Shown: positions 28,101 through 49,485, counted from the first letter of the stretch. The stretch is DNA of 64,000 nucleotides from Patiria miniata (GCF_015706575.1 NW_024037060.1:2728515-2792514), one strand, 5' to 3'. Program-made: numbers and translations. Notes: generated from the sequence alone by a model not told the origin.

Positions 28101-31100
28101 CCGTCTTTCACACATACTTTTATAGTTAACAATAACGGAAATTTCCAGTGTATTTCAGCTTTAATTTCAATCTAAAAAAATCGGTGCATTATTTATGTTG
28201 GATACATTAATTAACAAGCTTTCATTTGGACAGAGGTTGAAAGTCAGCTACTGACAGCAAAAATATATCGGAAGTAAAATTAGAGTTAATATTTTGGATT
28301 CTGAAGTACCTTTCCCTCCATTTTTGGATGATCTGTTGCCGAAAGCTCCATCTCAACCTTCCTGCCGTTGATCTCGGCAGTCAGCGTTGCCTGCATAAAC
28401 CACAACATAATCAACAATCTTTCATAATAACAATTTCAAGCAAATCCTATCATGGGCATTAGTCAAATAGTGTTTGATTTATGACGTAACTTAAAGTCAA
28501 TGGTTCAAACATAATAGCGTTACTTCTGGGTGCTGGTTCCGTGTTGTGCCTCATGATGCGCGCGACTAATTTAACGCTAACCTTCCTTATTATTGTTGAT
28601 CTTTAGCTGATATCGTTGAAGACTTTAATTAACGTGCACACGTCAGCGACTTGAACCTTAATAAACAATGCTTGTTTCGACAGTGGATTAGTCAAAACAA
28701 AAATCCGCAATTTCAAGCAAATCCTATCATGGGCATTAGTCAATGTGTTAATAACAGGGAGTGGAGTACACGTTGTTGGTTAACGGCATGTTGTCGACCA
28801 TTCATTATATGCGTTCACGATAGTTGCAATGGCCCGTCCAATATCGACACCTTTTGTCATTTTCGCCGTTGAGGGGGTAACTTACTTTCTGGCATTCTTG
28901 GACGAGTCCGTAGACCAGCAGCCTGTTGTGTCTAAACAAGGAGGTGATTTCTGCAGGAGCCTGGAGGGCAGGTGGGCGTGGCTCAGCATCATCTTGGTGC
29001 CACGTGACACGCAGGGATGCGACAGCCGGCTGGGATGCGCGAGAGACTTGCAATTGGATCTGTATAGAATCGAGAATAGACCGATCCATTAATAGGCTCC
29101 GCCCCATGGCGTTTCGACCAATCAAAGCCGTGATTAATGCCCAACATGCGTGAACGCGCATGTGAGTAGGCGGGGTCTCTAACCGATCAGTCTTAGCCTG
29201 GCATGTTCCTCACCAAATACTGCGGCCTTCAGGTGTTCATATAGAACGGGTGATACTCAGACTAGTGTTCATATTGACAGACCTTGCTTTGCAGATAATA
29301 TATTTTCCTGCTTCTGGTTAATTCCACGTACATACAATTAACAAAAGAACGATTATTGGAAACCGAATTCAATTTCTGTTAAAGATGGTTCTTTAAACTT
29401 AAATTATTAACCTGAGCTCTTTAGATCTTTTAATTCATGCATAAATACATCCTCTTCTCAAATATGAAGCGCACCTTTTGCTCCCAAGTGGATTTGGCCT
29501 TGGTGTCAAAGAACTCAAAAGCACCACCTCCTTGTCTGGCGGCTGCTGCCAGTAAATGCCGATTGGCTGTTTTGCTGTAAAAAATGGAAAATGTAGATAC
29601 ACAACCACTGATAGGTTAGTGAAAAAAAGATTTTGAAATTTGCCATCTCCCCTCTAGGTTTCTAAGACCGAGTCAGATGCATGATGAGTTGCAGTTATTA
29701 GCATTGTTATGACGATAATGATGATGATGATGCTGATAATACATAGTAACATTTTATTGGCTAAGACACGTTCACGTGACGTGTTTCAGAAGTTAATGTA
29801 TGATCACTTAATCCGATGCATCATCGGATTCAAATCGTTCAAAACCACATCCCAGCAGATACTACAATAATTTTACCTGACACCAAAAGTGAACACCCGG
29901 GAGTGTGCCCGGTGGCGTCCCACCGCCCTCAACGTTGCCTGTTCGTTGCTAAGGTGACCGTCTGTTATCAGAAACAGGTTTCTGAGGGCGCTCGTCGGCT
30001 TCAGGAGATGGTTGGACTGTAGAGGGCGCCAGAAGTCCGTGCAGCCCTGCTCGGCGGTAGCGCCCTTGATGAACTCCCTGGCCGCTTTCAGGTTGGCTTG
30101 TGTCTTGGGCTGGCTGGCAGGGAAAAGTTCGTCAAACTCTACAAAAAAAACAAGGATGAATTGTAGAAAATTAATTAAAATGTGACGAACTTGGTTATCT
30201 TTGTCAAATTTTGCCGAGCGTCAAACACAGTTGGCAAGTGGTAACATTATAAGGCTTATTCTATATAAATGAGAGCCCCTAACTGGTTACAAAGAGTGAG
30301 TTTAACAGACGGGACACTTGACCACACTGCTGCCTAATCAGGCCAGTAGCTCTTGCGAAAACGATACACCTGCACGCAGTCAATATTCGTGATCAATATG
30401 TGATTAAACCTTTTCGCACCTGTGCCAAAGAAGATGACATTAAAGGTGCACTGCGCGGGTAGATTCTGCAGAATGAGCAGCAGGAGTTTCTTGGCTTCCT
30501 CCAAGATCTCCCCTTTCATCGAGTTGGAAGAGTCCAGAACAAGAACCATGTCTGGATTGGTCACTGAGCCCACATCGATATCGGGGTAGAAGACAAGCAT
30601 GGCGGCCTGTATTGAAGAAATGAGATCTTTTGAATAACACTTTTAATTGCATGGGGACTTAGTGATGATTCTACCATTTTGGTGCAGAGGTGTAGGCATA
30701 CGGTTTCCTTGCTATCTATCTGTAATTTCAAATACCTCCCAGGCCTACATGAGATTGGGGCCAGTCCGTGCCTCGTGCCTATGTGGTTTTTTCCTGGAAT
30801 ATTTTCCTTGATTTCCTCCTGCCTCTAAAAATGATTTTTTTTTTGTCTTCAGACTTTCCGACAATATTGGTAAACCACTTTCCAGAAATACCCTGTTTAC
30901 ATCACGAGAAAGAACTGAATGAAATACAATATTCGTTACGTTGTTATGAAGGTCGCAGATTCAAACCCTGCTCCAGGCAATATCTTTGTACAAACTCACT
31001 ATTATAAACAAGAGACATAATAACATTTCAGACGTAAAATTTACCGAAGGAAAACCAAGGCCAACCGGCAATATATTGCAATAGCGTGGACCGGTATTTC

Positions 31101-34100
31101 TCTAAATCTGATTGGCTATTTTATGTTACCTGCTCTTTAGTTCCCGGATGTTCTTCCAACCACATCCGGGGCTTGTGCATCTCATCTAGACCAATCAAAA
31201 GCTGGAACCCATCATCCAGCTTGGAGTCCTTTCCCAATTTAATAGAGGCCTTTTTGTTGTCTCGCTGCAAAACAAACAAAATGATTCTGATTTCAAAAAA
31301 GAAAAGAACAAAATAATAATGCCATGCAAGGTACGTGATACCCGATTGAGGCTTTTGAAATAGTGAACTTATAACAGTTTGTCTAGTTTAACTATAGAAC
31401 CAATTCCTTGTTCCAATACGTTTATATGCATGGAAGCTTAAAATTTGTAACAAGGAGTTACTCAAGCCCATCGCAGCTGAGAAAAGTTTGTTATTATTTA
31501 CTTTCTTTCTTAAAACTTTGTTAAACTTACTTTGACAAGAATGGAGTGTGTGGGGGATTCGATGCATGTGATCTCGGATGCCATGGTAACCGCAACCTGA
31601 ACTGATTCTTCTCTGAGAAGGAAATAAAGGAAAAGACGAGCAACAATAGATTGCAGCAACTGGAGACTTTTGACATGCTAGGTTGCAGCAAGCACACCTG
31701 TCCTTTCAATCAATTACGTCTTCGAGCTAATGTTTAAAATGATGCAGATCGACAATATATAAAGACCACGCAAGCACCTAGCTATAGTTATGAGGAGTTC
31801 CTTTGTAAATGGGTATTTGGTATTCAGTGAGGTGGTCTGGAAAAATGAAATCAATCGGGAAAACTTGTTATCTACATTTCAAATACATAAAATGTTCTTT
31901 AATTACTTGTATATTGTTTCTAGGTCGACGTCGACGGCGTCCGCTCCTCCGGGGGCGCCCTTCGCCATCACCTCCTGTCGTTTCCATGGCGCCACGCTGC
32001 CTAGGAGTTTGAAGGCTAATTTGTCGCCCTCGACGGCCAGCTCAGTCACGTAGGTGACTTTGATCAGGACGTCGGAATGAGCTGGCAGATTGCCAACGCT
32101 GACGGAAAACACATTCTAAGGGCAAAAGACAAAGCGTTCCAGTAACGCATTGTGTAGCCTGTTGGAACCAACTTTGCACAAATCCAGGTGCAAGAAAAAT
32201 ATACAGTTGTATACACAGTACGATATTAAACAAAGGAAACCTTAAGATAAAGTTAAAAAGCAGTGGACAGGTCTGCGGTTTACGTCTTACCGGTGCCTCT
32301 TCATCCATGAGGTATGCTCCATGCCCCTCCTCCACCGCCTTACGGTACTCCTGGTGCGCCGCCTCTTTCTCCTTCACAACACCAACTACATGTTTGTTAT
32401 TGATAAACGCCTCGAAGCCACATACCGCGGCTGCTTCGTCCACAGGGAAGACGTATTTGGCCTCCATGGGTTCACTGCTGTTATTCCGGTAGGCCTGTAT
32501 GACGACAACCTGTGAGAAATCCGGTGTGAAATGTAAAAAAAAGCATTATTCCTAACATTTTTTGGTGTACTGTAGAAAATCCAGCAAGTTTGGAGAAAAA
32601 CCCGAGGTGAATGTGTATATTGGAACTTCCCACAAATTCAAAAGTGAATTAGAAGCCAATTTGACATCACGCGTCACGATGCTTTCGCAGCGATATTTAC
32701 CAAGCCGAAATGTGTTTATATTTCTTTAAAGGAATTGCGAAAACCTACCGGCACATGGCAAATACGCGAGGTAAAGTACAGCGAAAGTCAAGTACAAGCA
32801 CCACGTCTTGGGTATTTTGTGCGTGTACTATATATTTGTCTCTAAATTCTCCCAAATTCAGACCCAAAATTCTCATGCAAATGTTAAAAGAACAGACAAA
32901 CCTTTACAAAAACCAAGTATGTTAAATAAAATATACCAATTCACAATATATCATACGATGATTTAGATATTGGTTTATTTAAATAACAGCGCCCTTTACC
33001 TGTGCTACAAGATCTAGTATTTGTGCCCTGATGTGCACGGCTTGTAACGTCACAGTGTCTGATGTCTCATTGCTGCCGACCAAACCAGCTTCAATGCTGG
33101 CGATCGGGTCCTTAGCACATTCGATGTCACTCAAATCTGTCAATTAAGGGAGAAAAAACAGGTTTTTTATATCAACAGTGAAATAAAAACCGCACTTTGT
33201 CCCCTGAAAAAAATCATGATTTCCAGTAAAACTTCAAACTGAAACTGACCCCGAAAAACAAACAATATTTATGTATTGATGCCATTTTTAATCTTCTAAA
33301 ATAAAGTCCCGTTCCCTTTATACTTTATAACTGTGTACACCGACCGAACACGGCACTGTCCTGAAAACGTACACTTTCAAGGAATCAAGTTTTCGTATAG
33401 AGTCAGATTTGACATATTACCGTCCGTAGTGTTATTATAGTGGCAGAATTATGATTTCTTTCTTTTTAAGTTTCTGAGCAGACGAAGATCGATCTTATAC
33501 CAATATTACAAACAGAAAGACAATCAAACAGTAGGCCTAAATAATGTGGTTAAATACTTTTAAGTTCTGCATTAACGTGTCTATCAATTTAATTGCAACA
33601 GCCAAAAGTGTCGCCGTTTACGTTCAGCAACTCATGTCATTTTTTTTAAACAAAAAGTCGGGCAAAATGCAAAAATGTCACTCGTTAACACCCGACCCCT
33701 TGCAAAATCAGAAAGCCAACTGTATTTCATCGTTTTACCGATATCTGAAGGACGGGCGCTGCTTTCTTCTTGGGCCTGCTCAGGAAAGATCAGCTGCTCC
33801 ATAACTCCCTCCTCAACCTGCGGCGTCTCGCATAGCTGCATGTCGATCTCCTCGTCCCCCGGCAAGACGAACTCCACCAGGTACCGGATGCACTGCTGGT
33901 TCGCCTCGTACACAACAAACTCGTCATCCTAATTTTAAAGGGGGGAGGGGCGGGGGTGAGTAATCTGCAAGTCAATCCTGCATATATTCATTCAGTGGTA
34001 CAAACGTGTCTTATCTGTTCTCTCTCTCTCTGAAAACAAATTAGCGGAACACATCTGTTGTTCAATAAGAATTGGAAAACAGAAATTATGAAGTTGCTCA

Positions 34101-37100
34101 AAGTTCACCGTGAGTTTTCTATTTCAGTTTGTTCATGTTACTTGTTTAATGACTTTTTCTCCACTGTTTGTTTTTAATGTAAATAGTAACAAATATCTTC
34201 ATGTTGAAGTTAACGAGTAGCTCCAAGCCAGCAAAAAGCGGAAAATAAATGAAAGTTGATTCATCCATACCAAAAAATCCCTAATTCATGGTTATCCAGA
34301 TTTTTGTTCTGCTCACTCTGGGGTGCGAATATGGAGAACAGGAATTCCAGAGCCTTCTTAAATATTAAAAATGTTCAAGTCTTCTACCACTGCAACCAGG
34401 AGTGATTCCTATTTGGGATGACATTTAGGTTGAATCCACATCTGATCCCTTTGATTTCCCTTGCTGGGGTTTCCTCCAAGCAGTTAAATTAAATGCTTCG
34501 ACGTCGTCTCAACAGGCTTCCGAGCGACAGTGCCTTGCACTTTTGACGAACCCTTGGCCTCAGTATGATGTAGTAAGTTAAGGAAAGAAAGCACACACAA
34601 ATTCGACACGAACGCTGTACCTTGAACTCGGAGTCTCGTGTGCCGGTCCTGCTGACACCGTGGGTGCTATGGTAACCCTTAGGTGCCTCATTCAGGCTCA
34701 GATCAAACCAATACAGGTCTTTGATGTTGCCAAGGGCAACCTTGTTGACAACCATTAGTCTGGTGCCGGTCTGCTGGCTGGGTGACGAGTACTGCTGTGC
34801 AGTGCTGGGGATAAGCAAAACAAAATTAAAGTTAAAACCCTTCCTATAATAAAACGTAACATATGAGAAAATAAGTTCTTAATTGCAAGGTTACACGATA
34901 CAGAAATAGTCTCTCCGCATGATACATAAATAACTTTTATACCAATTATTGCTGTATCACGTGACACCCACCTGACTCGGTCGCCAAAATAGATTCCACT
35001 TCCCAGCATTCCTGCATCTCTCCGGGAACCCCCGAACACCTCGACGACAATCTTCGGGAGTAGAACACCCCTTACACGAGAGAAAACAAAACACAATTTC
35101 GTATCAACCTAACCTATAGAACGCTCGTGTTTTTCTCAGATTCCAAAGAAAAAAGATTGCATACCGCATGAAAAATATCTGGGCCTGATAACAACAGACA
35201 AAGCAGCTAGGGTAAAGGGGCCGGTCATTTAAGGACTCTTTCAATAATGGTTTTAAATTGTTGCTTTTACTTGAACACCCCTAAAGTGGAGCGAAACTGC
35301 ATTGTAGATTTTGGCTCTATTATTTTCTTATTCCCATTCGCAGTCGATTTCTTTACGAAGGTGAGTTACATCCACTTCCTTCGGAAGACGGATAGTGCCA
35401 CTTGCCGCCACAAAATTAGTGGCGGCCGCCACATAATAAGTGGCGGCCGCTGTACAAAAAATATTTTCACACGTACAAAAAATATATATATTCAGACTTA
35501 TTGAGTGGCACTATCCGTCTTCCGTAACTTCCGCCTGGAGATCGCACATTATTTGTTTCACTCAACTCACAGCAGTAGCCTAAACGCTGATATAAATTAT
35601 AAAACAGGTTTTGTCGTGTTCAGGTAATAGGCAATTGTTTGATAACACTCGTGCTAAAAGCTTCACACTTTTATTACTACGAGGGATCATCTTCACGTAC
35701 AGCGCATAAGTGTAATGCACTTAGAGATAACGGTATTTCGTTTCCTTTGTGGATACAACCTGTCAGAACAAAGTGCATCGCGTGAGAGACTTGAATCTGA
35801 AGGAGCTACTTATAAGTAGCAGAGGTTTCAAAGAAATATTGGTCATTTTTATGGCCAACTGCGGGAAAGTGTGTATGAAAGCTGAACATAGTATCCTCTT
35901 TTATGGGACGAATTCTGTAATGTTACTGACAGTATTAAATTGTGCAGCCTTACAGGTTTAATCATTTCTATCATGATTCGATATGTAATGTAATATTTGT
36001 TGTGCAATCCTTGGCAATCCTTTGTGTCCCATCCAACCTTATTTTCAATTATCGTTTCGCCATTTTGAAGGGTATTTTGGTGCCTTTTTGGTTTTATGCT
36101 AATGTGAATTACCATATTCATGAGCAAAAGTGTGACGTCTTTTCAGGCAGAAACCTCAAGATTACAGCTATTTTAGCATCAAGAGGTGCCAGAATTTTGG
36201 ATGCTTTGCTGATTAACACCATTTCATTACATTTTAGATTCCCGCCCTCTTCTGATTGCTTAAAGCAGTTTCAACGGCTGCTAGGCTACAATAATATTAA
36301 AGAATACAGAAAAGCTAAAAAAAAAATATACAAACAGCTGTTGCACTGTGTATTTTGAATGTGGGGTAGCTGTCGTGGCGCTGTGCAAAGTTTGTTTTCT
36401 CACCTAGAGAGAATCCCGAGGAAGTTAGCCGGCCTGGAAGCATGGAAGAGAAGCCGATCATTACCAGTGCCATGGGCATACACTGCTTCCTCGACCCCTC
36501 GGCTTGCTGCAAAAATGCGCTTAATTTCCAGAGGCTCGTCACTTGAAAAACAAGGAGTGCAAAATTAAAACACAAACGAAACAAAGTCACAAAAGACATA
36601 CATGGAACAAACAAAGGCCGTTTACCAAAGAGCATCCAGAGCTCCGACTACGTCAGCAGAGGGCGTGCACAGAGCGCCCTCACCGTGGGCAGGTTTTATT
36701 AAAATTCAGTGACAATGTATGTATCACATGTCTTCATAGCCGATTTTCGACCAGATCTGAACAGATTTTTTTGTAAAAAAAAAAATCTAGCAGAAAATCG
36801 AGCAGAATGGAAATTTTAGCAAATTTCTAGGAGAGTGTAAAATCGGTGATCAACTTGCAGAAAAACATAGCCGATTTGTTTTGAACAAGCTTCAATCACT
36901 TCAAACAAACCCTGGACACCACATTACACTAGGGGGCGCTGATATGGATGTATGTCAATAACATACTCACACTAACATCAAAATGGCGCTTTTTAAAAAC
37001 GCTCGTACTTTGTTTCTCCACTTTTCAGTGCTATTGAATACATTTTGGTTGTTGAGATGTTAGAAACATACCTCAAAATCCGAATTTATTTTTCTCATCA

Positions 37101-37104
37101 CAAA

Positions 37105-37153
<49 letters not shown>

Positions 37154-40100
37154 GGGTGGGTGAGGCGGGGGTTGATTTAGTAGCACACCCCTGGTCAAAA
37201 AGTGGGGTATACCCCCCACTCCATCCTGCCCCCGGATTTACACCCCTGTCAATATACAACAGCACTGCCCTCTATTACTCCGCCTTATCTTAACGCATAA
37301 AGTCTATACTTTTTAACTAATACCTCGACACGGTGGCTTTCACCAGTTTCTCCACCTTAACGAACTCCGGGTGATCAGGTGCCAGACAGTCCAGGTAGCA
37401 TTGCAATGCACGGTATCTGGACTGACTGGTGCTGCGTTGGGACCAGTCTGTCGCTTCACTCACCGCCACAATATCGTGAATAAGCTAGATACATAATACA
37501 AAATTGCAAATAATAACCACATAATCTCATAGGTGTCAATTCGTTGGTAGTTGTGAAATTTTATACATTTTTTTTTTCACCTAAGAGATTTCAGACATTT
37601 TTGGGGTTCAACGATGCTTTGAGATTAGTTGTTACAATTATTAGGTATTGCGTTTTGCTATAATGCATCGCAATGGTAGAATTATACTGATTCGTCTTGT
37701 AATAAAACACCGACTCATTTTGTGTAATAACCATTTGTCTAAAAAATGATTAGATTAAATCATTACCAGTTTTCATTTTGTGCTTCTCTGCTAAAAAATG
37801 TTTCAAATATCTACCTAACCTTATTCTTTTCTCCTCTGTGTTGTCAATTTTGGATTAGTTATTCGACTTTTTTCTCTTTTTTTTTGCTTTGTGTTTTGTG
37901 TTTTTTTTCAAAATGGCCTAATAGTAGGTTAGGCTCGTGGCTATACTTTAAAAAATAATTTATTAAAAATAAATTATGATATTACCAAATCGACTATTAA
38001 AACAAACATTTTGAAAAGCAAGGTTAATATAAATTATTACACATATTTTTGATCTGCTTCGTATTTGTCCCACCTGGCACAATTCCTGCTTGCCGGCTAG
38101 AGTGCGCTTGTTGTTCACGGGTGCCACGTGGTGTAATTTATGCGGTATCAGTCGGTAGAACTCGTCGTTCAGCTTATCGAGATCCGGTCCGTAGCCGTCG
38201 CAATCAGCGTCTAACATCTTCCTGATCTGGAGTAATATACCCTCCGCCTTTTCCACCTGAAAAGAACCCCCAAAAATATTTAAAATGAAAATAAAATCCT
38301 CATAGGAATTTGAAAATATTATCTAAGAAATACTGCAACAGCATGTAGTTAAAGTGAATCGGCGTACATTGATCATTTTAGTCAGGATTCGACTTTAACT
38401 AGCCACCCAGGTTTATTACAGATTCTGAACTAGCCGGGGCATTTTTGCTAGCCCGCATGTTTTCCTTTTATAGAGTGTCTCATAAACAACAATGTGCATA
38501 CATCTAAAACGTGTTTATGCTGAGGCAACTTTGTCAGTGTTTTTAATAAACAGATAATAGTTTAACCCTGAACAGTTAATATAATTAGAAACTAGTTCAT
38601 GCAGGTTTGCTTTCTGAATTGAATTATTTATTTCTGCTTGTCCTTTCATCTTTGCCGTAGCTCAATAATCTTTGACTCGCCAGCCGGGCTAGTACCTAGT
38701 AAGGAACAGCTTGGCTAGCCCGCCGCTGTTTTGACCGCGGCATTAGCGGGCTACCGCTAAAGTCGAACCCTGTAAAATTTAGCACGTTTTGAGGGTTGTG
38801 CAAAAAATTCAATATCGAAAACTATATTTAGAGTTTCACTATTGCAGCTGTGTCTATTATCCCTAGGTTGACTGCATTTCCTGAATGTCTGGCTATTTCC
38901 GGTTAACGCTGTATCTATTGAAACTGCCCGACACTCATGCATGCCGACACTGTCTCTATCCAGGTAGCGGTATGCATGGTTTTAATTGGGACATCAGAAT
39001 GTCTACGAGTGTGCGAGGCTTGAACAAAAACTTGATAACAAAACTGCGAGATGAACATATTTACGCCACGTGAAATATTTAATAACCCGCAAGTAGCAAG
39101 GAAATTCTGTGCCGCCTATACGTCTCTCGTACCTGCAACATTTCCAACTGTTCCTATAGTTTTTTACACTCAGACAACAGTATACTCACTGAAGATTACA
39201 TTTTGTGTTGCATGTGCACTGTTACAAGAAGTCTATTCCTGCAAACTCAGGTATATGTTGAAGATTAGCGGATATTTTTTTACAAGAAACTATCAAGAGT
39301 TTTGAGTTTCCATCAGGAGAATATTTGGGTTATTAATGCACAGCAATTTTCACTGGCACTCTCAATGAACGTTAAAGTTATGGGCATCGGGTAATACGAA
39401 ACAAATTCACGACATAATAAATTTCTTTTCAGTTTGTCTGCATTTTCTTCTAAGACATGCCTGAAAGCACAAAGCAGTTGCCTGTACACTGCTTCATGTG
39501 ACATGGCCCTATATTATAAGACCTACTTTTCCAATGCCTATTTTCCGGTAGGGAACTGATAAGATTTCTCGGAGTTCGCCATTCGCTTCCCGCCAGAGAT
39601 ACTCAACAAGCCTCGTCACTTCGTCTGAGATAGCTGGCCCGTCTGTTAGTCCAGTTTCCATCGCTTGCTGAAAGTTTAAAAAAAAAGAGGACATGACCTG
39701 AATCTACATTAGTCTCTTGTATGGCAGTCAAAAAAATCCGTTGGCAAAAAAAAAAGGTTCTAGATTGAAGTTCTTTTCGCTAAAAACCTTCACCTTACTT
39801 TCAGACCTTTTGTAGGTGAAAATGGAAATAAGAGGTTCAAATTGATTACAGGTCAAATCCAAACAACTAAATAGCAGGGATTATAATTGAAGCCGGGATT
39901 ATGGATCACAGGCCTCTTTTTCTGTTTTATTTTACAAAACATCAAGTGTTCCCCCCCTTTTTAGAGGCCACCACTGCGTATAAAAACGTTTGTATAGTCG
40001 GTAACGAATTTTGCAGTTACTCCACAATTCAGATTTTAGTAGTCGTCCGTTCACTATTCCGCGTATGTTTTTGTGTGCTTCTTTTGTCCTTTTTGCGACA

Positions 40101-41590
40101 ATGGCTCCATATTTTGCCTGAGATAATACAGCCTTGACGAAGCCGAAGAAAAGTCAATGCCCGAACGAAATCCTATTGCGAGTAGCTATATAGGTCACGC
40201 GCGTGATAACTTCCCCTGTGAGACATCCAGGCTAGGTACAAGAATTACCTTCCGGTAGACTGGGGAGCCTATCCATCGGGACAGGAACTTCTTGGTCTTG
40301 TGAAAGTCGGAGAAACTGGAGTAGATCTTGGCGTAGATACGAAGGGCTTCTTCGCAAGACGATGCGTAGTGACATTCCTTACTCCCATAGGTTTCATCCT
40401 GACGGAAAGACGTGTTGAACGCAGTGTTTTTTTGTTAACGTTGTTGTTGTTGTTTTTAAACTTTTTGGGAAGGTGGTCAATTTAGTTCAACAAATGCATA
40501 AAGACTTTTGGCGAAAATTATTAAACTTTTCCTTCAAATTCATTTGATAGTATGTATTTCCAATACATTAGACAAAAGTTGCATCTCAGGAGGCAAAAAA
40601 TTACTTCCAATGCATTAATTACTAAATATTAATTACTTAAATTTACTTCAATGAACAGCTTGTTAATATATAATCAGAAGAGTTATTACAATAAAAACTG
40701 CCGACAAAATTGAATTTATACATTGATTATAAAGATAAAAATTACTTACAATTTTGCTGATGATTTGACAAAGGAGGATTTGACGAAGAAATTATCATAA
40801 ATGGGAACTACTTTGATTTGGGAAACTTTTACCCGACTGTACTTTTCCGCATGAGATATTATGAACACCCACACAAATCTCATACAATAATAAAACGTCA
40901 GTAAGCAACACGGGTTTAGTGTTTATTGCTTTAACCTTGCAGTCGTTCAAGGAAGTTTAACAACATGAGAGGCCTTGACATGTATCATGAGATATGACAA
41001 GTGAGGCACGTGCAAATGGGAAAGGACGGACAGTGCGCATGTTAAACAAATAGTGGTTTAAATCTCCTACCTGCATTTCCAACAAGCGACCGGTGTGTGT
41101 AAACACGCGGCACGGGTATTCGGTCGGTGTTTGCCCGTCCGACTCGGTTTCGTTGTCGGTAGAGACAACGTGGAGCTCCAGAAGACGAAACTCCGCATCC
41201 TCACCCGGCTGGGGTTGGGGCGGGTCCTAGAAAGCCACAAGAGGGGAAGGGGAAACAAAGTGACCATCGTCCACCTTTTTTTCTCTTCTGGAAGGTTACC
41301 AAGAGTTCCAGGAATGTGTATTTGAATTTTGTGTAAAATAATTGCTTAAAATTCTGATTTTTTCTTTAGAAAAAGCTTGGTTTTTCGAAGACAGCTTTTT
41401 TTTTCACAAAAAAGCCCACAATAGGTACCAAAATGGAAAAAAAAAAATCAAATCCGATTAGTTTAAACCTCACGGGATGCAACTCTATATGTATCTATCA
41501 TAACGTTTACCTGAAAGAGGGCGCTTTTAGCTACATCATAATGGTCTTCTGGGAAACTGGGTGCAGCTGGATCGCCCCACTTCCAAACTC
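22178..41590 (-). CDS. PARP4: Vault poly(ADP-ribose) polymerase PARP4 orthologue, with at least 25 exons. Approximate coding exons on the minus strand: 41513..41590; 41090..41230; 40260..40400; 39509..39694; 38040..38260 (PARP regulatory domain, …KAEGILLQIRKML…DEFYRLIPHK); 37325..37490; 36400..36545 (LLFHASRPANFLGILS); 34920..35060 (GSGIYFGD); 34560..34810 (VALGNIKDLYWFDLSLNEAPKGYHSTHGVSRTG); 33700..33930 (DDEFVVYEANQQCIRYLVEFVLPGDEEI); 33000..33140; 32270..32510 (VIT: AKYVFPVDEAAAVCGFEAFINNKHVVGVVKEKEAAHQEYRKAVEEGHGAYLMDEEAP); 31903..32112 (FSVSVGNLPAHSDVLIKVTYVTEL…APWKRQ); 31530..31615; 31140..31270; 30334..30600 (VWA: MLVFYPDIDV…VLVLDSSNSMKGE…FNVIFFGTG); 29870..30130; 29470..29580; 28850..29100; 28310..28395; 27601..27912 (LHQLAARAVIRNWEEGALH…FTSFIAVEERDE); 27365..27490; 26709..26890; 26095..26213; 22989..24362 (giant proline-rich exon); 22800..22940 (DGHWEFQSELEEILGIN); 22178..22438 (C-terminus + stop).
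   Basis: Compared with the human PARP4 protein sequence as I recall it, the exon translations give long collinear matches. Examples: human AKYIFPLDDKAAVCGFEAFINGKHIVGEIKEKEEAQQEYLEAVTQGHGAYLMSQDAP; FTVSVGNLPPKAKVLIKITYITELS; DDEFVVYKTNQVKMKYIIKFSMPGDQI; MLVFQPDLDV…; IHKLAARALIRDYEDGILH…FTSFVAVEKRDE; TANRHVL…FEYFNAKSK; DGFWKLTPELGLIL. The domain order PARP-regulatory, PARP-catalytic, VIT, VWA, long C-terminal tail is specific to PARP4. Catalytic H (LLFHASR), Y (GIYFGD) and E (DDEFVVYE) are all present. Exon borders are approximate, and the 5' coding exons upstream of 41590 were not resolved. Confidence 0.9.
25987..26070. repeat. Palindromic cluster of GGTAAG/CGTAAG motifs (ttaaggtaaatcttaccttaaggtaagttaacttaccgtaaacttacggtaaatcttacc), directly downstream of the donor of the PARP4 exon 26095..26213.
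   Basis: Seen in sequence. On the minus (transcribed) strand it gives 4-5 consecutive consensus 5' splice sites within about 70 nt. Confidence 0.8.
37096..37162. repeat. (GT)14 microsatellite followed by a G24-type homopolymer tract, in a PARP4 intron.
   Basis: gtgtgtgtgtgtgtgtgtgtgtgtgtgggggggggggggggggggtgggtgagg. Confidence 0.95.
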
Positions 41591-44422
41591 TAAAATCACA
41601 ATTAATTAAATCACATTAGCTCAGATCAAAAAAACTGATCCCTTTGCGAAATGTTTAAACCAGCGCAACGATTACACGTCATACGAACTCGCCCAATAGA
41701 TCAATGTTCCAATTGGAATCAAAAGCTAAAAGTATACAATAGACAATGAAGAAAACCTTTATACCGTAAACCGAACAACCAGTTATAGGCTATATCAACT
41801 CAATCCCTGGCCTCACCTAAATGACAAATTTCATTTAGTCTCGACTCCACTCATTTAGACCATTCTTCTCCATGTTTAGACTATAACTACAAGTCCGACA
41901 ACCACCTCTGCATTCAAGCCAACTTACTCAACTCTACCAAACTCTACTCACTTGAACTTGACGTACTCAACGTGTTCGAAAAGTAAAACTCACCGAGTAG
42001 TTGATTCACCCATGGTGTTCGTGTTATGCACACGGGATTTATGATAATCGTGCACTCGTAGACTTTACTGAAAGGTCAATCAGCACACATCCTATACTCC
42101 AGTCTGCTATTCACTGCATGCATCGTGCTGTTTTACATCAAAAGGAAATATGTTTGTCAATGGTATTTCCTCATACAGTTAAGGTCAGGTGGAACCTGAG
42201 TACGCCTACAGTATTTGATGCGCAACCATTCACTGTCTGCTATAAGCATTTCGAGGTGGTGTTGTATTAGGCTACCAGGTAATTCTTACAGGACCAACTC
42301 CAACGTGTAGACATAACGATAAAGTACTAGGTCATGTACCTGTACTTCAGATTTGGCCTTTGAGATCCGTGGAGCGGAAAGTATGCATATTCATAGCATA
42401 CCCAGGCGCACTGACAATGCGTCAACCAAGTACCAGCAAAAGGAAAACCTCAGAAATGAATCAATCGTATCTTGGCTCGAAATTCGGTGACGACCAGACT
42501 ATGACTAGACCTTGTTTCCGAGGGAAGTGCGTTCACGGGAAAACCTCCAAGGCTATAGGCAAAACACGTCCCCTTTACATGTGTACAGGCACACAAAATA
42601 AGCCAAGGTTAAATTCAATAATTAGATTACCATAACACTTCGAGCTTTTCATACTAGGCTATCTTATTAGTTTCTTGCTCTGACTTTAACCTTGTGACAG
42701 AAATGTAGCCTGTACCTTAAGTCTCGGAATATATACATTATATATCTTTAATTTGCAATATCTGGCCGTTTGGCAAGTATAGTTTTAGCTTCCCACTATA
42801 TGGATGCATATGAAGCACGTACAACTATTATGACTCGACATGTATGGTTGTGAATCACGGGGCCAACCTTTTTTATTGTAAAAAATACTTGAGGCGTATA
42901 TCTTTTATGCCCGTTACAGTTGGGTGACACTGGAACCCAGATTTGTGGCTTTTGTCGGAGAAGAGGTATGGTCTATGCCAACTTTTTGTGTAACTACAAG
43001 TCTACTCAATTGTTTCCATTTTCAGTGCAGTGAATCTGATTGACTCAATCGGACATTGTCCAATAACAATATCTGAAAATCTTCTATCAAGATTACTTAA
43101 TTCTTTTCAGGGCAAATATGCATTGAATAAAATGGTTAGTCAGTGTAAAGATCAATGAACTTTAGACTCACGTGGGCATTTGTGAGCCTGCTCCCCTTAA
43201 TTACTTGTATCCAAGCAGCCCCCAACCACCATGACTCGCTCTCTTTTTTTCTTCTGCAGCAATTACTGCTCATTTTCATCAGATAAGAATGAGAGCATCT
43301 CACTTATTTTCTTCCAACAAAGTTAAACATTTGCCTCCTTTGAAATCGTTGTTCATCTGTGCACTGTAACAGTTCTTGCATTGCCCCTGCCCCAACATTA
43401 CGCGGCATTTTGTCTCGTTGTTTTAGAAGCTGTTATCGTCGTGATGCATCCGCAAGAACCTGTCTTTTGTTGAGTGGTGGACAAACAACAGGAGATGAAA
43501 TCTATGATGATTTTTTATTGGTGTTATCACAAACCGTCAGACATCTAGGACTCTGCACGTCCGGTTTACTTATTGAAGATACAAATCAACTTTGTCGAGT
43601 CGGTACATCGGTCCTTTTCAATTGAAATTCAGTCACGATTCCCGATGAATTTAGAGTTATATCCCAACTTTGTCTCGAGTCAATAATTATGGCTCCTCAG
43701 GTCAACATTTCTCTCCTTTTTTTGTATCAAACGGCTATGAGTGTGTTCCTTTTCTTCGCGAATTCCATCTGAGATTATTTCCTATAAAATATGATGAGTA
43801 AACGGAGGCATGTTTAGATTGTAATACCTAATGAGTTTATTCAGCACGTTTAGACGCGAATGTCATGAGATATTATTATGTGCCACAATTACTGCTTTTG
43901 TTAAGCCAAAAAAAAACTTTTGTGAAAGGTGTTAAAACGAGAAGTGAAAAACATTTGCCAAAGAAGAGTACACTGTTGCAATTAGTCCTCAGGAGAGCAA
44001 TTTCGAAATCCATCATGATCAATCGCGTCAATTGGAGCACATATGGGATCCCTTTGTCAACATTATTATCTGATGCTCGGTTACATTCCAAATCAATAAC
44101 TATATGTTGACATTTCTATATGAAAGGCTCGTGACGTCCGCAAATATGACGAAGCAGGGTCTCCACATTCGGCGCGTGCTGTGAGCGAGCATTCTTCCAA
44201 ATCAAGCTTCAACCGGTAGGTCTTTGATGAGCGGGGAACAAACAAACTGGAGGAACCGGCTGTCATGGCAACGACATGAAGCGGGAGTGATGTAACATTT
44301 CCGATTGTACACACTAAAGCCGACTCGCCTTTTCGTATTGACCGTAGCCTAAAGTCTGTCACCAATATATCACTTGCTCGTAATGAATGTCGCCGTATGT
44401 CACGTCAACATTGACATTTCAG

Positions 44423-44679: not shown

Positions 44680-45398
44680 GTGTCATGGTGTGTGGGAATT
44701 GGTTCATTGCTATAGGAGTACCGCGTGCGTTTGCATTTTTATCCTTTTTTTTTTAAACTTCCGTGCAGCAAGCTGAATTGTTTGAACGTAATCTAGACGG
44801 TTGATAGAGTTACCTGACGAAATAGCGGACTTTGACTTATTGGATCGATATCTTAGGCAGGTAGGGACCGGCCGATTCGCGCCGAAGCTAAACCTCATCT
44901 TTGGTGCAAGTCTGCCGCGGTGCTGCAAACATCACGTGATGCGGCACTTCATTAGCTGGATGGAAACAGTCCATCAATATTGGGATATGCTTGAATTTGA
45001 TAACGAAGCTGTGGTTAGGGCGATCTTTGTGTTTTGGATGATGAGAATAAAAAAAGGCCACAAGGAAGCAACATTTGCGTGTAAAGTGGTCTTCTTCAAC
45101 CGAACTTGTTTTTGGTTGAATGGAGAAACTTGTGACTGAAGACGGATTCGAACGTGCGCCTCCGAAACACGGTAGCAGCTCCACACCAACTCGGCCAGTC
45201 GATCAAAATAAAATAGGCACATCGTCAGCCTATAATTATAGACTTCCAGAACCTCTCTATTATTTCATTCGATGTCGGATGTCCATTAAACAGGTCAAAC
45301 TGATGGATGCGTTCTTTTAAAACTCTACCTATTCTGAAAAGCCGAAAATAGACTCGTTGTTATTGGATTGAAGATATCACGGAAAACTCCTTAAGACA

Positions 45399-46445
45399 AT
45401 GACGAATTGCAATGCTTCATCTTGCCTGATTTTCGGCACTGCTAACTCTTCTATCGACGAATCTCCTCCATTCCTGGATGATGAGCGTCATATAATAGTC
45501 ATTGTTGCCCAGACGTCCACGATGGTTATCATTCTTCTCCTCAGCGTGGTCGGTAACAGCCTGGTCCTGACTGCGATCTACCGGGACATCAAGCTACGCA
45601 ACACCGCCTCAGTCTACGTGGCCAACTTGGCCACTGCCGACCTCCTCAACGGGTTACTAACCATGCCTCTCATCGTAGCCTGCAGTGTCTTGGGGGAATG
45701 GCCCTTCGGTCCGGCACTCTGTTCCCTCAGCGGGGCTCTGACGACCCTCTTCTGCAGTGTGAGTGTCTTTACCCTGGGAACGATAGCCGTGGACCGCTAC
45801 ATCGCCATCGTGCATCCGCTACGCTACAGCACGCTCATGACGCGCCGTAAAATCGTGGCGTCCATCTGCGTTACGTGGCTCCAAGCTGTCATCCTATCCG
45901 CCTTGCCCATGCTGGGATGGTCCAGCTACCTGTACATCGACAAGGAGTATCTCTGCACGGCCGATTGGGGAGGGGTGCTCTCCTACACCCTGACGGCCTT
46001 CGCTATAGATTTGGGATTTCCTCTGACCACCATGTTCTTCTGCTACTACCACATTCTCAAATCGGCGCGCAAGCAGTCGCGGCAAGTGGCCGCGCTTCGA
46101 GTAGGCCTGAACCACGACGCACAGAACCGTAGCTCGCCTCAGAGAGGCACCAGCCAACAGCCTTCGAAACGGGCGAAGTCAGACATGAAAGCCGCTATGA
46201 CACTTCTCGCCGTCATAGGAACGTTCCTGCTCTGTTGGCTGCCACATGTTGTGACGATGGTCTGTCTCGGTAGACCGTACAATTGTAACATCCCCGACGC
46301 ATTGTTCGTCATCTCGACATGGCTAGCCATTGGTAACTCGGCCTGCAACCCCGTGATTTATGGCATACTGAACAGACAGTTCAGGCAGGCATTTCGTGAA
46401 ATCCTATGTGGTTGGAAGGCTAGCAGAAGAATGTTCTTTCGGTGA
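45399..46445 (+). CDS. Intronless class-A (rhodopsin-like) G-protein-coupled receptor, 348 aa, orphan. It has a short ICL3 and an N-glycosylation sequon at the N-terminus (NAS, NSS).
   Basis: Single uninterrupted ORF with seven hydrophobic segments. TM2 has LATADLL, the end of TM3 has the DRY motif (AVDRYIAIVHPLRY), TM6 has CWLP (FLLCWLPHVV), and TM7 has NPxxY (NPVIYGILNRQFRQAFREILC) followed by a helix-8-like basic stretch. No Lys in TM7, so it is not an opsin. No Asp at the expected amine-binding position in TM3, so it is probably not a biogenic-amine receptor. Confidence 0.85.
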   Translation: MTNCNASSCLIFGTANSSIDESPPFLDDERHIIVIVAQTSTMVIILLLSVVGNSLVLTAIYRDIKLRNTASVYVANLATADLLNGLLTMPLIVACSVLGEWPFGPALCSLSGALTTLFCSVSVFTLGTIAVDRYIAIVHPLRYSTLMTRRKIVASICVTWLQAVILSALPMLGWSSYLYIDKEYLCTADWGGVLSYTLTAFAIDLGFPLTTMFFCYYHILKSARKQSRQVAALRVGLNHDAQNRSSPQRGTSQQPSKRAKSDMKAAMTLLAVIGTFLLCWLPHVVTMVCLGRPYNCNIPDALFVISTWLAIGNSACNPVIYGILNRQFRQAFREILCGWKASRRMFFR

Positions 46446-47457
46446 AAAAAATGTCTTCAAACAGATGTCCAGATGTCCGGTAAAAAAAATTGTTCATGCT
46501 CACCTTATTCTCAATGTTACAAAAAATATGGAATATAATATCTATAACGAAAATCCTTGCATCGAACTATATGATCAGTCTTTTTCATTCAGAAAAATAG
46601 TAAAGGTAGATGATGAAATAATTAACTTATTAAAATGGACGCATTGTACTGCCGCCAAAACAAACAATACAAACTTAAAAAGCTAATAATGGCGATATAT
46701 GACGATCTAAATTGTACCCTAATTCTAATGTTCGTTTGGGTGTGTGTGTCAGCAAGTACACACGATCAAAAATCGGTGTCAATATGAAAGATGACATATC
46801 GTGTCCATTTTCAAAAGAAATATATCGTTTCAATGAAAGGTGAGCAGTTACATTTGCCTCAGTTACGACGCATAATATGTTGAATTCGGGAAACGAATTG
46901 GGTCAGTATTCTCGATGGCTTTGACTTGCGAGCATGGCAACACGTTTCGGGGTCCCACTTATTAAATTTGTCGGTTGGTGAGGACCTTTGATTATAGTCG
47001 TATCCCAAGTCAAACGATGTCCGTAATTTAATTCTTGGGAACGGAGTCATGCAGACAACCAATCGGACAGAAAACACAGACCGGGGTGGGTGTCTGATTA
47101 AGCGGGCTTTGGTAACTGCATGCTCATTTCGTAGTTGACACCCTTACAGCTCCTCCATGTAAGCCGAGGAGTTACCGAGCTTTACACGGGATAGGCCTAT
47201 CGGTGAATGCTGGATGGACTACCTAGCTCAACCTTGGACACAACACCGTTCAAAAGCTAAGATATTGTGTTAAAACAAGGTTGGATTTTATAACAGTATG
47301 TAAATTTCTTCGGGTTGTCATCAGTGGTTTTCCGTTACTGTATTGACCAGCCGTATCGACTAGGAAGGAGTGCACTATCTGGCTTGTCTAAGATAAGGCG
47401 TTGGGACATCGTCTTCAAGTTTTGAAAGTTGACAGTACCTGTGTGATCCGTACCACA

Positions 47458-48678
47458 ATGTCGCAGCTTGGCTCCTCTAACATCACTCTCCTTGTACCAG
47501 GCGGGACGGACACCGGCATAGCTGCCGCGATTGTCGCCTACTCCACCTTCATCCTGGTCCTCGGCGTGCCAGGGAACAGCCTCATCCTCCGCGTTTACTG
47601 GAGCAAGCGACACAAATCCAGCACTCATATTCTCATCATGGCACTCGCCGCGACTGACCTGCTTGTCTGCTTGCTTCGTCCGTACGAGATCACGCGGTTC
47701 ACCCTGGCTCTTGCCGGGGTTAGCGTACCGGAGGGACTTGACGATCGCTGGAACTGCTTCGAGAACATGTGCGTTGGAACCTCGGGGTTCATAACGGCCG
47801 TGATCGCAGTGGATCGCTACGACTGCGTGTGCCGTCCGCACAGACGCCTTCTAACCAAAGGCCGGATTAAAGTAGCCCTGCTAGCGGCCGTCGCTTCTGC
47901 AGTTGCCGCAAATGTTCCGCTTTGCGTTCAAGTGGTAATGGGGCCCGAGGCACCGGCCTCCTTGTATATAATCGTGACCGCTTTCCAAATGGGTGGTTTC
48001 GTTCCTGCGCTTGCCTTGATATTCGTTTGCTACGCAAAGGTACTCCTGAGAATACGTAAGCATGTCCGAGTCGGTACGAGGTCTCTAGGACGTGCGTTAG
48101 GCATGCGACATCAAACTGACGCGGCGAGATCTACGACAATTGCGACGGTGTCAGCACACGTGGGATCGCGGCACTGCAACAACCACACGTCATGTAGCGA
48201 CTTGGGGTCAGTTTGCAACAATAGCCTGAAAACTCCAGATGACTTTCTGAAGAGCATCGTCTCCCAATGGTCCTCCTCTTCAAAACTCAGTACGGAGAAT
48301 AAAAATCGGTACCCAGACTTAGGAAATTCTCCCCATTCTTCGACCCAGACAACGACAAATGACCGCAGCGCACGCAGCGCGACGTCGTCCACACGGCCAC
48401 CTAGGGTGCCAACCTCCGAACGCAGGCAAGCGTCTTCAATGGCGTTTCAACGCAAAACCACCACAATGCTCTTCGTTGTAACGCTAGTGTTTGTTATATT
48501 GTGGATTCCGTATTGGATCGCTCTAGTGTTTGATATCGTGGGTGCCGACAGGCCGTTCGTTCTTAACGCGTTCGTGTTCGCCCTGTATCTGAATAGCGCC
48601 ATTAATCCCGTCATCTACGGTCTGGCAAATAGACGGTTCCGGAAAGACTGCAAAGCTATCCTCTGTAGAATGAGATAA
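47458..48678 (+). CDS. Intronless class-A GPCR, about 406 aa from the ATG at 47458 (the ORF is open from 47401). It is a paralogue of the upstream GPCR with a long (~150 aa) Ser/Thr/Arg-rich third intracellular loop.
   Basis: TM2 has LAATDLL, TM3 has AVDRYDCVCRPHRR (DRY), TM6 has ILWIPYW, and TM7 has NPVIYGLANRRFRKDCKAILC. The C-terminal motif is nearly identical to the upstream receptor's NPVIYGILNRQFRQAFREILC. The N-terminal NIT sequon and hydrophobic TM1 follow MSQLGSSNITLL. Both are in the same orientation and about 1 kb apart, so they are tandem duplicates. Confidence 0.8.
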   Translation: MSQLGSSNITLLVPGGTDTGIAAAIVAYSTFILVLGVPGNSLILRVYWSKRHKSSTHILIMALAATDLLVCLLRPYEITRFTLALAGVSVPEGLDDRWNCFENMCVGTSGFITAVIAVDRYDCVCRPHRRLLTKGRIKVALLAAVASAVAANVPLCVQVVMGPEAPASLYIIVTAFQMGGFVPALALIFVCYAKVLLRIRKHVRVGTRSLGRALGMRHQTDAARSTTIATVSAHVGSRHCNNHTSCSDLGSVCNNSLKTPDDFLKSIVSQWSSSSKLSTENKNRYPDLGNSPHSSTQTTTNDRSARSATSSTRPPRVPTSERRQASSMAFQRKTTTMLFVVTLVFVILWIPYWIALVFDIVGADRPFVLNAFVFALYLNSAINPVIYGLANRRFRKDCKAILCRMR

Positions 48679-49485
48679 TTTCTTACTAACCCTGGTTGCG
48701 GCTAATTTCTTTCGGCTCTCATTGGATAGATTCTGCCATGCACCGACGTAATTTTCAACATTTTGTGTTGTAAGTTCACCATCAGTATTGTACAGTTTAG
48801 GCCAATTATTGTACCACTGCCGTCATTAAGTGCCAAAAATTCCTTTTCAAGCAAAATGTTGTGGGACATAAAATGGTTTATTACACGACATTTAACAAGA
48901 AATGTGATTGATTTAGAGAGGGGTTTGAGTCAATAAAGGAATGTAAATCATTAGAAAATTTTCAGCATATATAATAGTACTCGTAAAAAACGCTATTACT
49001 ACTTCATCGTGAGCTAAACTACTATTAATAATTAGTGTAATTTTAACACTACTATGAGTTGAACACATACAAAATCTTTACAAGTGTTTTCGTATTAAAA
49101 CAGGTACTAAGAGTAAAATGATAACAATTGAATTAATGTAATAAATAGTTCAAATATTTGACGTGTCCACAACCAATCGGAAATTTCGTGTGCTAATATT
49201 TTCGTATCCAGTGAAATGTACTATGACATTACGATAATTATTCAAATTGGCACGAAATGAATATCTCCAAACGAACGTTCTTTAGCAGAAAAAAGTCCTC
49301 TTTTGGTACATTGCGTAACTTAAAAAATTTTCATGTACCAATACTTCCAAAAGTCTAAGAACTATTTGCTATAACATTTTACAGTTTGTACAACTTAAAA
49401 TGAGTAATGTCCAAGTTAATACATATAATAGGTATAGTTACAAGTTTTTTTTTACATACCTTTTCAAAACGTTCCAAGCCAACGT

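Follow-up and report, generated by a model that had tools for sequence, protein, structure and literature searches.

Two adjacent single-exon class-A receptor genes of Patiria miniata and their assignment by sequence to different families

Two genes encoding class-A (rhodopsin-family) G-protein-coupled receptors (GPCRs), here named GPCR1 and GPCR2, lie side by side in the sea star Patiria miniata, on the same strand and 1 kb apart, both without introns and with superficially alike C-terminal tails (NPVIYG..NR.FR...ILC). Did they arise by local duplication, with the second copy later gaining a long third intracellular loop (ICL3) and a divergent DRY context, or did two unrelated receptors become neighbours? 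A preliminary description of this DNA had called them a tandem pair of paralogues. The DNA analysed, referred to as the window, is the full stretch of 64,000 nt (NW_024037060.1:2728515-2792514, assembly GCF_015706575.1), and positions are counted from its first letter. By sequence comparison, the two genes belong to different families and the tandem-duplicate interpretation fails. Taken together with the family placements given below, they are very probably independent, functional single-exon class-A genes and chance neighbours rather than tandem duplicates.

Comparison of the two neighbouring genes

The two intact, intronless receptor frames about 1 kb apart that had been described previously were confirmed by open reading frame (ORF) analysis, Pfam searches and AlphaFold2 (AF2) models (Table 1). 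For GPCR2, whose frame is open over 47401..48678, the first ATG at 47458 was taken as the start and a bacterial TTG start at 47401 was disregarded. With the stop-codon frequency of the window (0.052 per codon), the chance probabilities of the stop-free runs were 8e-9 for GPCR1 and 4e-10 for GPCR2. Each start codon is preceded by A at -3, and in-frame stops lie 10 and 23 codons before the two starts. The G+C content was 54% in both coding sequences (CDSs) versus 34-43% in the flanks. Both proteins matched Pfam 7tm_1 over the whole model (1-260 of 260; cut-off 30.5 bits), GPCR1 with E 4.5e-60 and 203.7 bits and GPCR2 with E 2.6e-30 and 106.2 bits. The AF2 models comprised seven transmembrane (TM) helices and helix 8 in each case, with a predicted local distance difference test (pLDDT) score of 88.7 and a predicted template-modelling score (pTM) of 0.85 for GPCR1, and 78.4 and 0.73 for GPCR2, whose TM blocks exceeded 90. 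Foldseek returned more than 1500 GPCR matches to the predicted fold. All microswitches were kept in GPCR1 (GNSLV with N1.50, LATADLL with D2.50, DRY, CWLP with W6.48, NPVIY, helix 8 at 326-336) and in GPCR2 (GNSLI, LAATDLL, DRY, LWIP, NPVIY, helix 8 at 392-405). By Pfam match, microswitches and seven-helix fold, both are class-A GPCRs; no further GPCR-like sequence was found in the window by tblastn.

Both frames are intact in the window sequence. GPCR1 and its syntenic orthologue in Acanthaster planci share 70% amino acid (aa) identity with a ratio of nonsynonymous to synonymous substitution rates (dN/dS) of 0.10-0.18, indicating that GPCR1 is under purifying selection.

Alignment of GPCR1 with GPCR2 by BLASTP gave two partial stretches only, with 34% identity over 96 aa and 30% over 109 aa. 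On a hidden Markov model (HMM) of the GPCR1 family, the median score was 83 bits (45-107) for the GPCR2 family versus 243 bits for aminergic receptors with Asp at position 3.32 (D3.32). An unrooted neighbour-joining (NJ) tree was built from 316 columns with Poisson distances and 100 bootstraps. GPCR2 fell within its starfish family in 100/100 replicates, GPCR1 was joined with the A. planci orthologue in 100/100, and the GPCR1 family was recovered in 92/100. The tree distances from GPCR1 were 0.34 to the A. planci orthologue, 1.16 to aminergic receptors and 1.45 to GPCR2, and those inside each of the two families were 0.86-0.90.

With identity that is partial and only 30-34%, a GPCR1 that stands farther from GPCR2 than from vertebrate-type aminergic receptors, and separate family nesting at 92-100% bootstrap, duplication on the spot is left with next to no probability. 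The ICL3 length and the DRYDCVCRP context that the second copy should have gained are common to more than 90 paralogues elsewhere in other starfish genomes, no GPCR2 lies beside the A. planci orthologue of GPCR1, and the shared tail motif is generic. The local-duplication view, and with it the wording "tandem pair" and "paralogues", is effectively refuted.

The tail itself had been presented as distinctive. The tail strings NPVIYGILNRQFRQAFREILC and NPVIYGLANRRFRKDCKAILC and the DRY-region strings DRYIAIVHPLRY and DRYDCVCRPHRR quoted at that time are all present, and the exact pattern NPVIYG[IL].NR.FR was confined to the two window proteins among the sequence sets compared. The pattern NPxxY-x5,6-F[RK], however, occurred in 93% of 75 D3.32 aminergic-type receptors and 95% of the GPCR2 family, as well as in the GPCR1 family (58%) and among other distant matches (49%). 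A tighter form, NP[VILFM][IVLM]Y...N[RK].F[RKQ], occurred in 36% of the aminergic-type set, and the same motif was visible in the PDB alignments of 5-HT1A and CCK-A (NPIIYCFMNKRFR). The shared tail is a generic class-A NPxxY/helix-8 motif with the usual downstream Cys, which we take to be a palmitoylation site.

The GPCR1 family, amine receptors and GPR161

Residue positions of GPCR1 were anchored on the 5-HT1A and GPR161 alignments, which gave Thr3.32, Ile7.43, W6.48, His6.51 and Val6.52. An exhaustive HMMER search recovered a discrete shell of relatives, 40-47% identical and scoring 229-292 bits, which was set off from a plateau at about 150-165 bits; their sources were Amphiura, Lytechinus, Anneissia, Asterias, Glandiceps and Nematostella. 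GPCR1 keeps 96% of the family-conserved positions, and TM6 CW(L/I)PH and TM7 TWLAM.NS.CNP.IYG were found in nearly all members. In all likelihood, the GPCR1 family is a small and old orphan group of sea stars, brittle stars, sea urchins, crinoids, hemichordates and cnidarians. More distant relatives (P0002, environmental ENA contigs) showed no synteny.

The A. planci member is annotated as "octopamine receptor beta-2R-like" (XP protein, P0001, scaffold DF978686.1). It is a 1:1 orthologue of GPCR1 in the same orientation, likewise encoded by one exon, and its neighbours are again the PARP4-like and HYR/LDLa/Fz/CUB/trypsin genes; its locus differs from the window in that GPCR2 is absent downstream. 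The annotated protein has 19 extra N-terminal residues before the Met aligned to the GPCR1 start.

If such a name were right, GPCR1 would be a true biogenic-amine (octopamine, serotonin or tyramine) receptor. Overall it is strongly similar to beta-adrenergic, octopamine-beta2, 5-HT1A and H2 receptors, and aminergic receptors (octopamine beta, 5-HT1A/4, H2, D1) have the same architecture and the same style of helix 8 (FRxAFxxIL-Cys; FRxAFxxILC in GPCR1) at 29-32% identity and 130-146 bits (190-212 bits with the profile). The family profile did not single out one of the solved structures, as its matches formed a plateau of 200-212 bits across octopamine beta2, GPR161, beta1AR, 5-HT4, 5-HT1A and H2. 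The residues Asp3.32, Tyr7.43 and Phe6.51/6.52 of aminergic receptors are nevertheless missing in GPCR1, which has Thr, Ile and His/Val at these positions, and Asp3.32 was found in 0/20 shell members (residues there: N/T/V/I/L/S/M/G). Because Asp3.32 is missing in GPCR1 and its whole family, GPCR1 is not taken as an amine receptor, and this identity, for which the automated names are contradictory between species, is very improbable.

The automated names of family members include octopamine beta-2R-like and GPR161-like in Amphiura, tyramine receptor 1-like or D2-like in Lytechinus, 5-HT1A-alpha-like in Anneissia, octopamine receptor 1-like in Asterias, 5-HT1A in Nematostella and H2-like in a hemichordate. 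In total, at least seven automated names are spread over one orphan family without Asp3.32 (P0001, P0180, P0181, P0182, P0183, P0190, P0191, P0200). The hemichordate "H2-like" protein P0200 lies just outside the 40-47% shell and likewise has no Asp3.32.

The earlier statement that neither protein has the TM3 Asp of amine receptors or the TM7 Lys of opsins holds for GPCR1 (Thr3.32/Ile7.43) and for GPCR2 (Tyr7.43 and no Asp3.32, the residue being Glu by ungapped counting). Orphan status was borne out to the extent that both receptors have no known ligand and are neither aminergic nor opsins; their relatives, though, are already annotated under inconsistent names. An opsin reading was rejected for both proteins, since Lys7.43 is absent (Ile7.43 in GPCR1, Tyr7.43 in GPCR2). 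Melatonin receptors have NRY/NAxxY. A melatonin-receptor reading was also rejected: NPxxY and DRY are canonical in both proteins, and the PDB match to GPR50 was weaker (123.6 bits).

The nearest characterised relative of GPCR1 is most likely GPR161, a vertebrate orphan and constitutively active Gs-coupled ciliary receptor (8KH4, 8SMV). GPR161 was the co-best PDB match of GPCR1 (146 bits, in one full-length stretch) and, like GPCR1, has no Asp3.32; the two share an ECL2 (second extracellular loop) pattern of hydrophobic-Cys-(V/T)-x-x-Trp matching M177/C178/V179/W182 of GPR161, the TM7 pattern TWL..(N/S)(S/A)xC(N/H)PxIYG, I7.52 and R8.51. By Foldseek, GPCR1 had its lowest root-mean-square deviation (rmsd), 2.5 A, to two GPR161-Gs structures (TM-score 0.90-0.91). 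A GPR161 HMM covering 12 species was built from a human GPR161-core search in which, among the matches listed, only vertebrate GPR161 appeared. On this HMM, GPCR1 scored 164 bits and its family a median of 163, versus a median of 112 for 75 aminergic receptors; the amphioxus GPR161-like protein scored 364 bits and P0315 294 bits. In the NJ tree, the GPCR1 family was joined with GPR161 in 76/100 replicates versus 7/100 with aminergic receptors, and the GPR161 sequences formed their own 100/100 split excluding the GPCR1 family. These sequence and model comparisons point to a specific link of the GPCR1 family with GPR161 that is not orthology.

Could GPCR1 nonetheless be the echinoderm orthologue of this ciliary Hedgehog-pathway receptor? 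GPR161 is its top or co-top PDB sequence match and its best structural match by rmsd, the GPCR1 family lies above the aminergic receptors on the GPR161 HMM, one family member is named "GPR161-like" by NCBI, and the ECL2 motif is common to both. The residues that set GPR161 apart are different, however: D2.50 and N7.49 are present in GPCR1 and in 20/20 of its family, at positions where GPR161 from vertebrates to amphioxus has N and H (N2.50 in LSNFLL, H7.49 in HPxxY). The sterol site of GPR161 is formed by the triad I7.52/W7.56/R8.51 (PMC10245861); W7.56 is Leu in GPCR1 and L/M/T/F over the family, and the I7.52 and R8.51 that are present are generic. The tail of GPCR1 ends 11 residues after Cys337 and has no room for the A-kinase anchoring protein (AKAP) helix of GPR161 (348 aa versus 510-550 aa), although this helix, which binds the RI subunit of protein kinase A (PKA), is also unclear in invertebrate GPR161 (PMC10245861). 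The HMM score of GPCR1 is less than half of that of the amphioxus orthologue, and the 100/100 split keeps GPR161 separate. A sea-urchin GPR161 with a conserved sterol triad has been reported (PMC10245861), which implies a separate echinoderm GPR161 orthologue. Orthology of GPCR1 to GPR161 is thus given only a very small chance.

The preferred view of GPCR1 therefore remains that of an orphan receptor related to, and distinct from, GPR161. With D2.50, DRY, CWLP, NPVIY and helix 8 with its Cys all kept, GPCR1 would be expected to signal through heterotrimeric G proteins. In its ECL2, L185-C186-T187-A188-D189-W190 aligns with the plug positions of GPR161. The motif (I/L)-C-(T/S)-x-x-W was found in 20/20 family members, with I/L, Cys, T/S and Trp each in 20/20, and C186/T187/A188/D189/W190/G191 were invariant in the GPCR1-family alignment A2. 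The AF2 model places a beta-hairpin at 177-180/185-188. In GPR161, the orthosteric pocket is occupied by the ECL2 residues M177, V179 and W182, and constitutive cAMP production is lost when they are mutated (PMC10245861). From the motif match, the predicted hairpin and the 20/20 conservation, we infer that ECL2 of GPCR1 caps the orthosteric pocket, with high basal activity as a possible consequence.

A broader proposal is more speculative and is rated as rather unlikely, yet well ahead of GPR161 orthology: the GPCR1 family may be an unrecognised ancient family of cnidarians, echinoderms and hemichordates, for which these searches showed no vertebrate member, and the sister of GPR161, sharing its self-activating ECL2 plug while having the canonical D2.50/NPxxY and no sterol-site Trp.

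GPCR2 and the starfish-specific expansion

The search for GPCR2 relatives returned 106 proteins at E<=1e-5. Among them were 74 named starfish proteins with 30-42% identity (42 from Patiria miniata, 13 from Asterias amurensis, 11 from A. rubens and 8 from A. planci), and matches outside starfish were at most 27-34% identical or partial. As in the GPCR1 family, the automated names were contradictory (D2-like, CCK-like, GPR84-like, 5-HT-like and others). The relatives are clustered elsewhere: a chromosome-scale Patiria contig of 19.6 Mb carries 20 of them, a single A. planci scaffold carries 3, and locus L002 has two neighbours. The family is marked by DRYDC(V/I)CRP, LQRKTT, NPxIYG(L/I/V)ANRRFRKDC and a long, disordered, Ser/Thr-rich ICL3. 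Of 62 positions with at least 85% conservation in the family, GPCR2 keeps 59 and differs at the other three by conservative changes. GPCR2 is most likely a routine member of this starfish-specific expansion of at least 74 annotated paralogues.

The features previously singled out in GPCR2 were found throughout the family. Its DRY context, DRYDCVCRPHRR, had been regarded as unusual; the family form in an alignment of 94 sequences is IA(V/A/L)DRYDC(V/I)CRP..R, the exact IAVDRYDCVCRPHRR occurs in 9/94 (GPCR2 itself plus 8 paralogues), and nearly all sequences carry a close variant. The ICL3, which the second copy was thought to have acquired, measures 126 aa between RIRKHV and FQRKTT in GPCR2 and ranks 64 of 94, with a family median of 118.5 (65-168). 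Since the family-wide length distribution includes GPCR2, the long ICL3 is ancestral. In the AF2 model, about 104 aa are non-helical, with pLDDT below 50 at 227-258 and 269-307. The loop consists of 19.8% S, 11.9% T and 10.3% R (Ser+Thr 32% versus 22% in the family), so that its description as long and Ser/Thr/Arg-rich was correct, but the quoted length of about 150 aa was too high. As the DRY context, the NRRFRKDC tail and the long ICL3 are all family-wide, none of them was newly acquired by GPCR2. Judged from its composition and predicted disorder, the ICL3 is a likely site of phosphorylation-dependent desensitisation.

The pocket of GPCR2 has Tyr7.43, Tyr6.51 and Trp6.52, partly reminiscent of aminergic receptors amid a variable family pocket. 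At the column aligned to 3.32 the family is hypervariable, with E, N, D, G, Y, S and other residues. Counting without gaps from DRY gives Glu for GPCR2 itself, in agreement with the ungapped CCK-A TM3 alignment; hmmalign puts a gap at this place.

A variable 3.32 column, a single exon and a lineage-specific expansion fit the olfactory receptor (OR)-like chemosensory GPCRs of echinoderms, for which expansions have been published (PMC5442662, PMC7042368, PMC9759900). The single exon, the large lineage-specific expansion and the clustering of the GPCR2 family in other genomes match the description of the sea-urchin surreal-GPCRs and the A. planci ApORs (groups A-K), and the ApORs have conserved TM helices with divergent ICL3 and C-terminus (PMC5442662), as does the GPCR2 family. 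GPCR2 partially fits the OR motif MAxDRYxxxCxPLxY (quoted in PMC7042368) by its DRY-xxx-C-x-P; the other OR signatures, KAxxTxxxH and PxxNPxxY, are unmatched. By analogy with these receptors, GPCR2 is probably a chemosensory, "OR-like" candidate.

GPCR2 was not found in the syntenic A. planci locus (L001), where tblastn with GPCR2 found only TM7 of GPCR1. The distance from the GPCR1 stop to a conserved downstream block is 1035 bp in A. planci versus 2399 bp in the window. The spacers of the two species were compared by local alignment against shuffled controls and by sensitive blastn, as global alignment with MAFFT forced the middle. A weak collinear match of the spacer middle (46951-47054) was detected by blastn (66% over 106 bp, E 5e-8), and the presence/absence difference falls between collinear anchors on both sides (Table 1). 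As the syntenic A. planci site lacks the GPCR2 gene of the window, this gene was, with high probability, gained here or lost in A. planci independently of GPCR1.

This difference raises the possibility that GPCR2 is a recent non-functional retrocopy or transposed copy, a young pseudogene that has not yet lost its reading frame. In size, the roughly 1.3-kb difference nearly equals the CDS of 1221 bp, and GPCR2 is intronless and a singleton away from the family clusters. The whole GPCR2 family is single-exon, however, so that intronlessness is uninformative on retrocopying, and no poly(A), no above-chance target-site duplication and no repeat or transposable element (TE) were found around GPCR2 in its flanks, nor were repeats found elsewhere in the window. 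A direct repeat of 19 nt (D2, 15/19 identical; 47303-47321 and 48704-48722) brackets the CDS at a spacing of 1401 bp, not far from the size estimated for the presence/absence difference; with 12 such families in 3 kb, D2 does not exceed chance. Synonymous divergence (dS) between GPCR2 and its closest A. planci relative is saturated (at least 2), and constraint was gauged by the family-conserved positions instead. The 59/62 positions kept, the intact microswitches, the 406-codon frame with its chance probability of 4e-10 and the start codon with a purine at -3 all speak for a functional gene. The closest sampled relative is 42% identical; GPCR2 is therefore not a recent copy of any sampled gene. 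A pseudogene is accordingly improbable, if slightly less so than the amine-receptor and GPR161-orthologue identities of GPCR1.

Several points weigh against the overall interpretation of two functional receptors from separate families, one linked to GPR161 and the other to chemoreceptors. Every functional statement on GPCR1 and GPCR2 is drawn from sequence. The grouping with GPR161 is of moderate support (76/100, NJ, Poisson distances), and the GPCR1-family HMM gives GPR161 about 255 bits, inside the aminergic range of 216-281. An ECL2 beta-hairpin with an aromatic residue at Cys+4 is also known from opsins, so that the motif alone is no proof of self-activation. GPCR2 is a singleton in the 64-kb window beside unrelated genes, outside any tandem array, whereas the published recognition of ORs uses tandem arrays of four or more genes (PMC5442662). 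DRYDC and NRRFRKDC were not found in the supplements of the echinoderm chemoreceptor papers, and the chemosensory label is given by analogy.

Surrounding locus and implications

Table 1. Positions of the two receptor genes, their landmarks and neighbouring elements in the window.
Feature	Position	Strand	Evidence or remarks
GPCR1, single-exon CDS, 348 aa + stop, ATG start	45399..46445	+	ORF, Pfam 7tm_1, syntenic A. planci orthologue, dN/dS, AF2
GPCR1 ECL2 motif Y-L-C-T-A-D-W-G, residues 184-191, family hallmark	45948..45971	+	Positional equivalent of GPR161 plug W-M-C-V-A-A-W
GPCR1 NPVIY + helix 8 + Cys337, NPVIYGILNRQFRQAFREILC	46347..46409	+	Sequence; AF2 helix 326-336
Spacer between GPCR1 and GPCR2, 1012 bp	46446..47457		GC 39.7% vs 54% in CDSs
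GPCR2, single-exon CDS, 406 aa + stop, 1221 bp	47458..48678	+	ORF, Pfam 7tm_1, family nesting
GPCR2 ICL3, residues 220-323, disordered, Ser/Thr/Arg-rich	48115..48426	+	AF2: TM5 ends 219, TM6 starts 324
GPCR2 NPVIY + helix 8, NPVIYGLANRRFRKDCKAILC	48604..48666	+	Family signature NPxIYG(L/I/V)ANRRFRKDC, from family alignment
Interval holding the ~1.3-kb presence/absence difference, includes whole GPCR2	47055..48845	.	Collinear anchors both sides
Non-coding block shared with A. planci	48846..49113	.	L001 12129-12384, 68% over 278 bp; downstream anchor of presence/absence interval
PARP4-like gene, divergent from GPCR1	30337..41594	-	PARP_reg, PARP catalytic, VIT, vWA domains

The window is collinear with A. 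planci scaffold DF978686.1 (locus L001), with exon identities of 73-86% and a dS of about 1.1-1.7, as expected of a related but distinct asteroid; the best database matches of both receptors were all starfish proteins. GPCR1 (45383-46447) matches L001 10038-11094 with 73.6% nucleotide identity, and the PARP4-like exons in 36398-41594 match L001 758-4900 exon by exon. The proposed divergent arrangement with PARP4 proved right: the minus-strand neighbour has the PARP4 architecture (Pfam PARP 1.9e-18, VIT 6.2e-28, VWA_3 7.2e-14, plus PARP_reg), and its head-to-head order with GPCR1 is kept in the window and in L001. The most 5' of the PARP4 exons identified with confidence has its end at 41594, which leaves 3.8 kb to the GPCR1 ATG. 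Two blocks at 43441-43506 and 44244-44314, weakly conserved with A. planci and without Pfam signal, could be 5' PARP4 exons or a promoter. In an intron of the PARP4-like gene, at about 37100-37270, a (CA)n/(TG)n-type microsatellite gives THTHTH and PPPPPP runs in the six-frame translation. An open exon of 457 aa at 22992-24362 (-) has repeated EPD.MIER..(V/L)MPEP units and a proline-rich tract, PPPPPPGGAAPPPPPPPPGGAAPPPP, with no Pfam match; it may belong to a separate gene or form the C-terminal exon of the PARP4-like gene.

Downstream of GPCR2, the non-coding block at 48846-49113 contains several near-identical stretches of 15-20 nt, although synonymous sites are near saturation between the window and A. 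planci, and includes TTTATT (AATAAA on the minus strand). It may be the end of the 3' untranslated region of a minus-strand protease-like gene, or a regulatory element. That gene (51487-58164) is collinear over 51487-58114 with L001 14575-20714, its exons being 77-86% identical at the nucleotide level, and its A. planci counterpart carries HYR, LDLa, Fz, CUB and trypsin domains, as in a corin-like multidomain serine protease. A 134-bp match of 77.6%, inverted and non-syntenic, was observed between 56545-56678 in the protease-like gene and L001 2171-2291 in the PARP4-like region, and is probably a shared repeat or TE fragment.

A genuine tandem duplication was observed elsewhere in the window, where two copies of a CUB-like unit of two exons lie about 10 kb from each other, at 8075-9415 (-) and 18080-19667 (-). 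The exon pairs are 8075-8593 and 18080-18559 (40% aa identity, E 7e-28), and 8873-9415 and 19092-19667 (38% aa identity, E 9e-24). The exon at 8075-8593 matches Pfam CUB, and an LDLa exon lies at 4917-5450.

Both receptor genes belong to families already present in annotated echinoderm genomes, and the features flagged in the preliminary description are generic or family-wide. An orthologue of GPCR1 had been annotated before, and GPCR2 adds one more gene to a very large starfish family, so the pair carries little weight as a discovery. With GPCR2 present in one species and absent from the other while the rest of the interval is collinear, the locus cleanly exemplifies single-gene scatter or loss in chemoreceptor-type expansions. 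The GPCR1 family, now named octopamine-, tyramine-, serotonin-, dopamine-, histamine- or GPR161-like, deserves one orphan-family label. The lead worth keeping is its GPR161-like ECL2 motif, which provides a testable hypothesis on constitutive activity. If the sister relation to GPR161 were true, self-activation by ECL2 would be older than the recruitment of GPR161 to ciliary Hedgehog signalling, and the GPCR1 family would serve as a simpler model for ligand-independent activity of class-A GPCRs.

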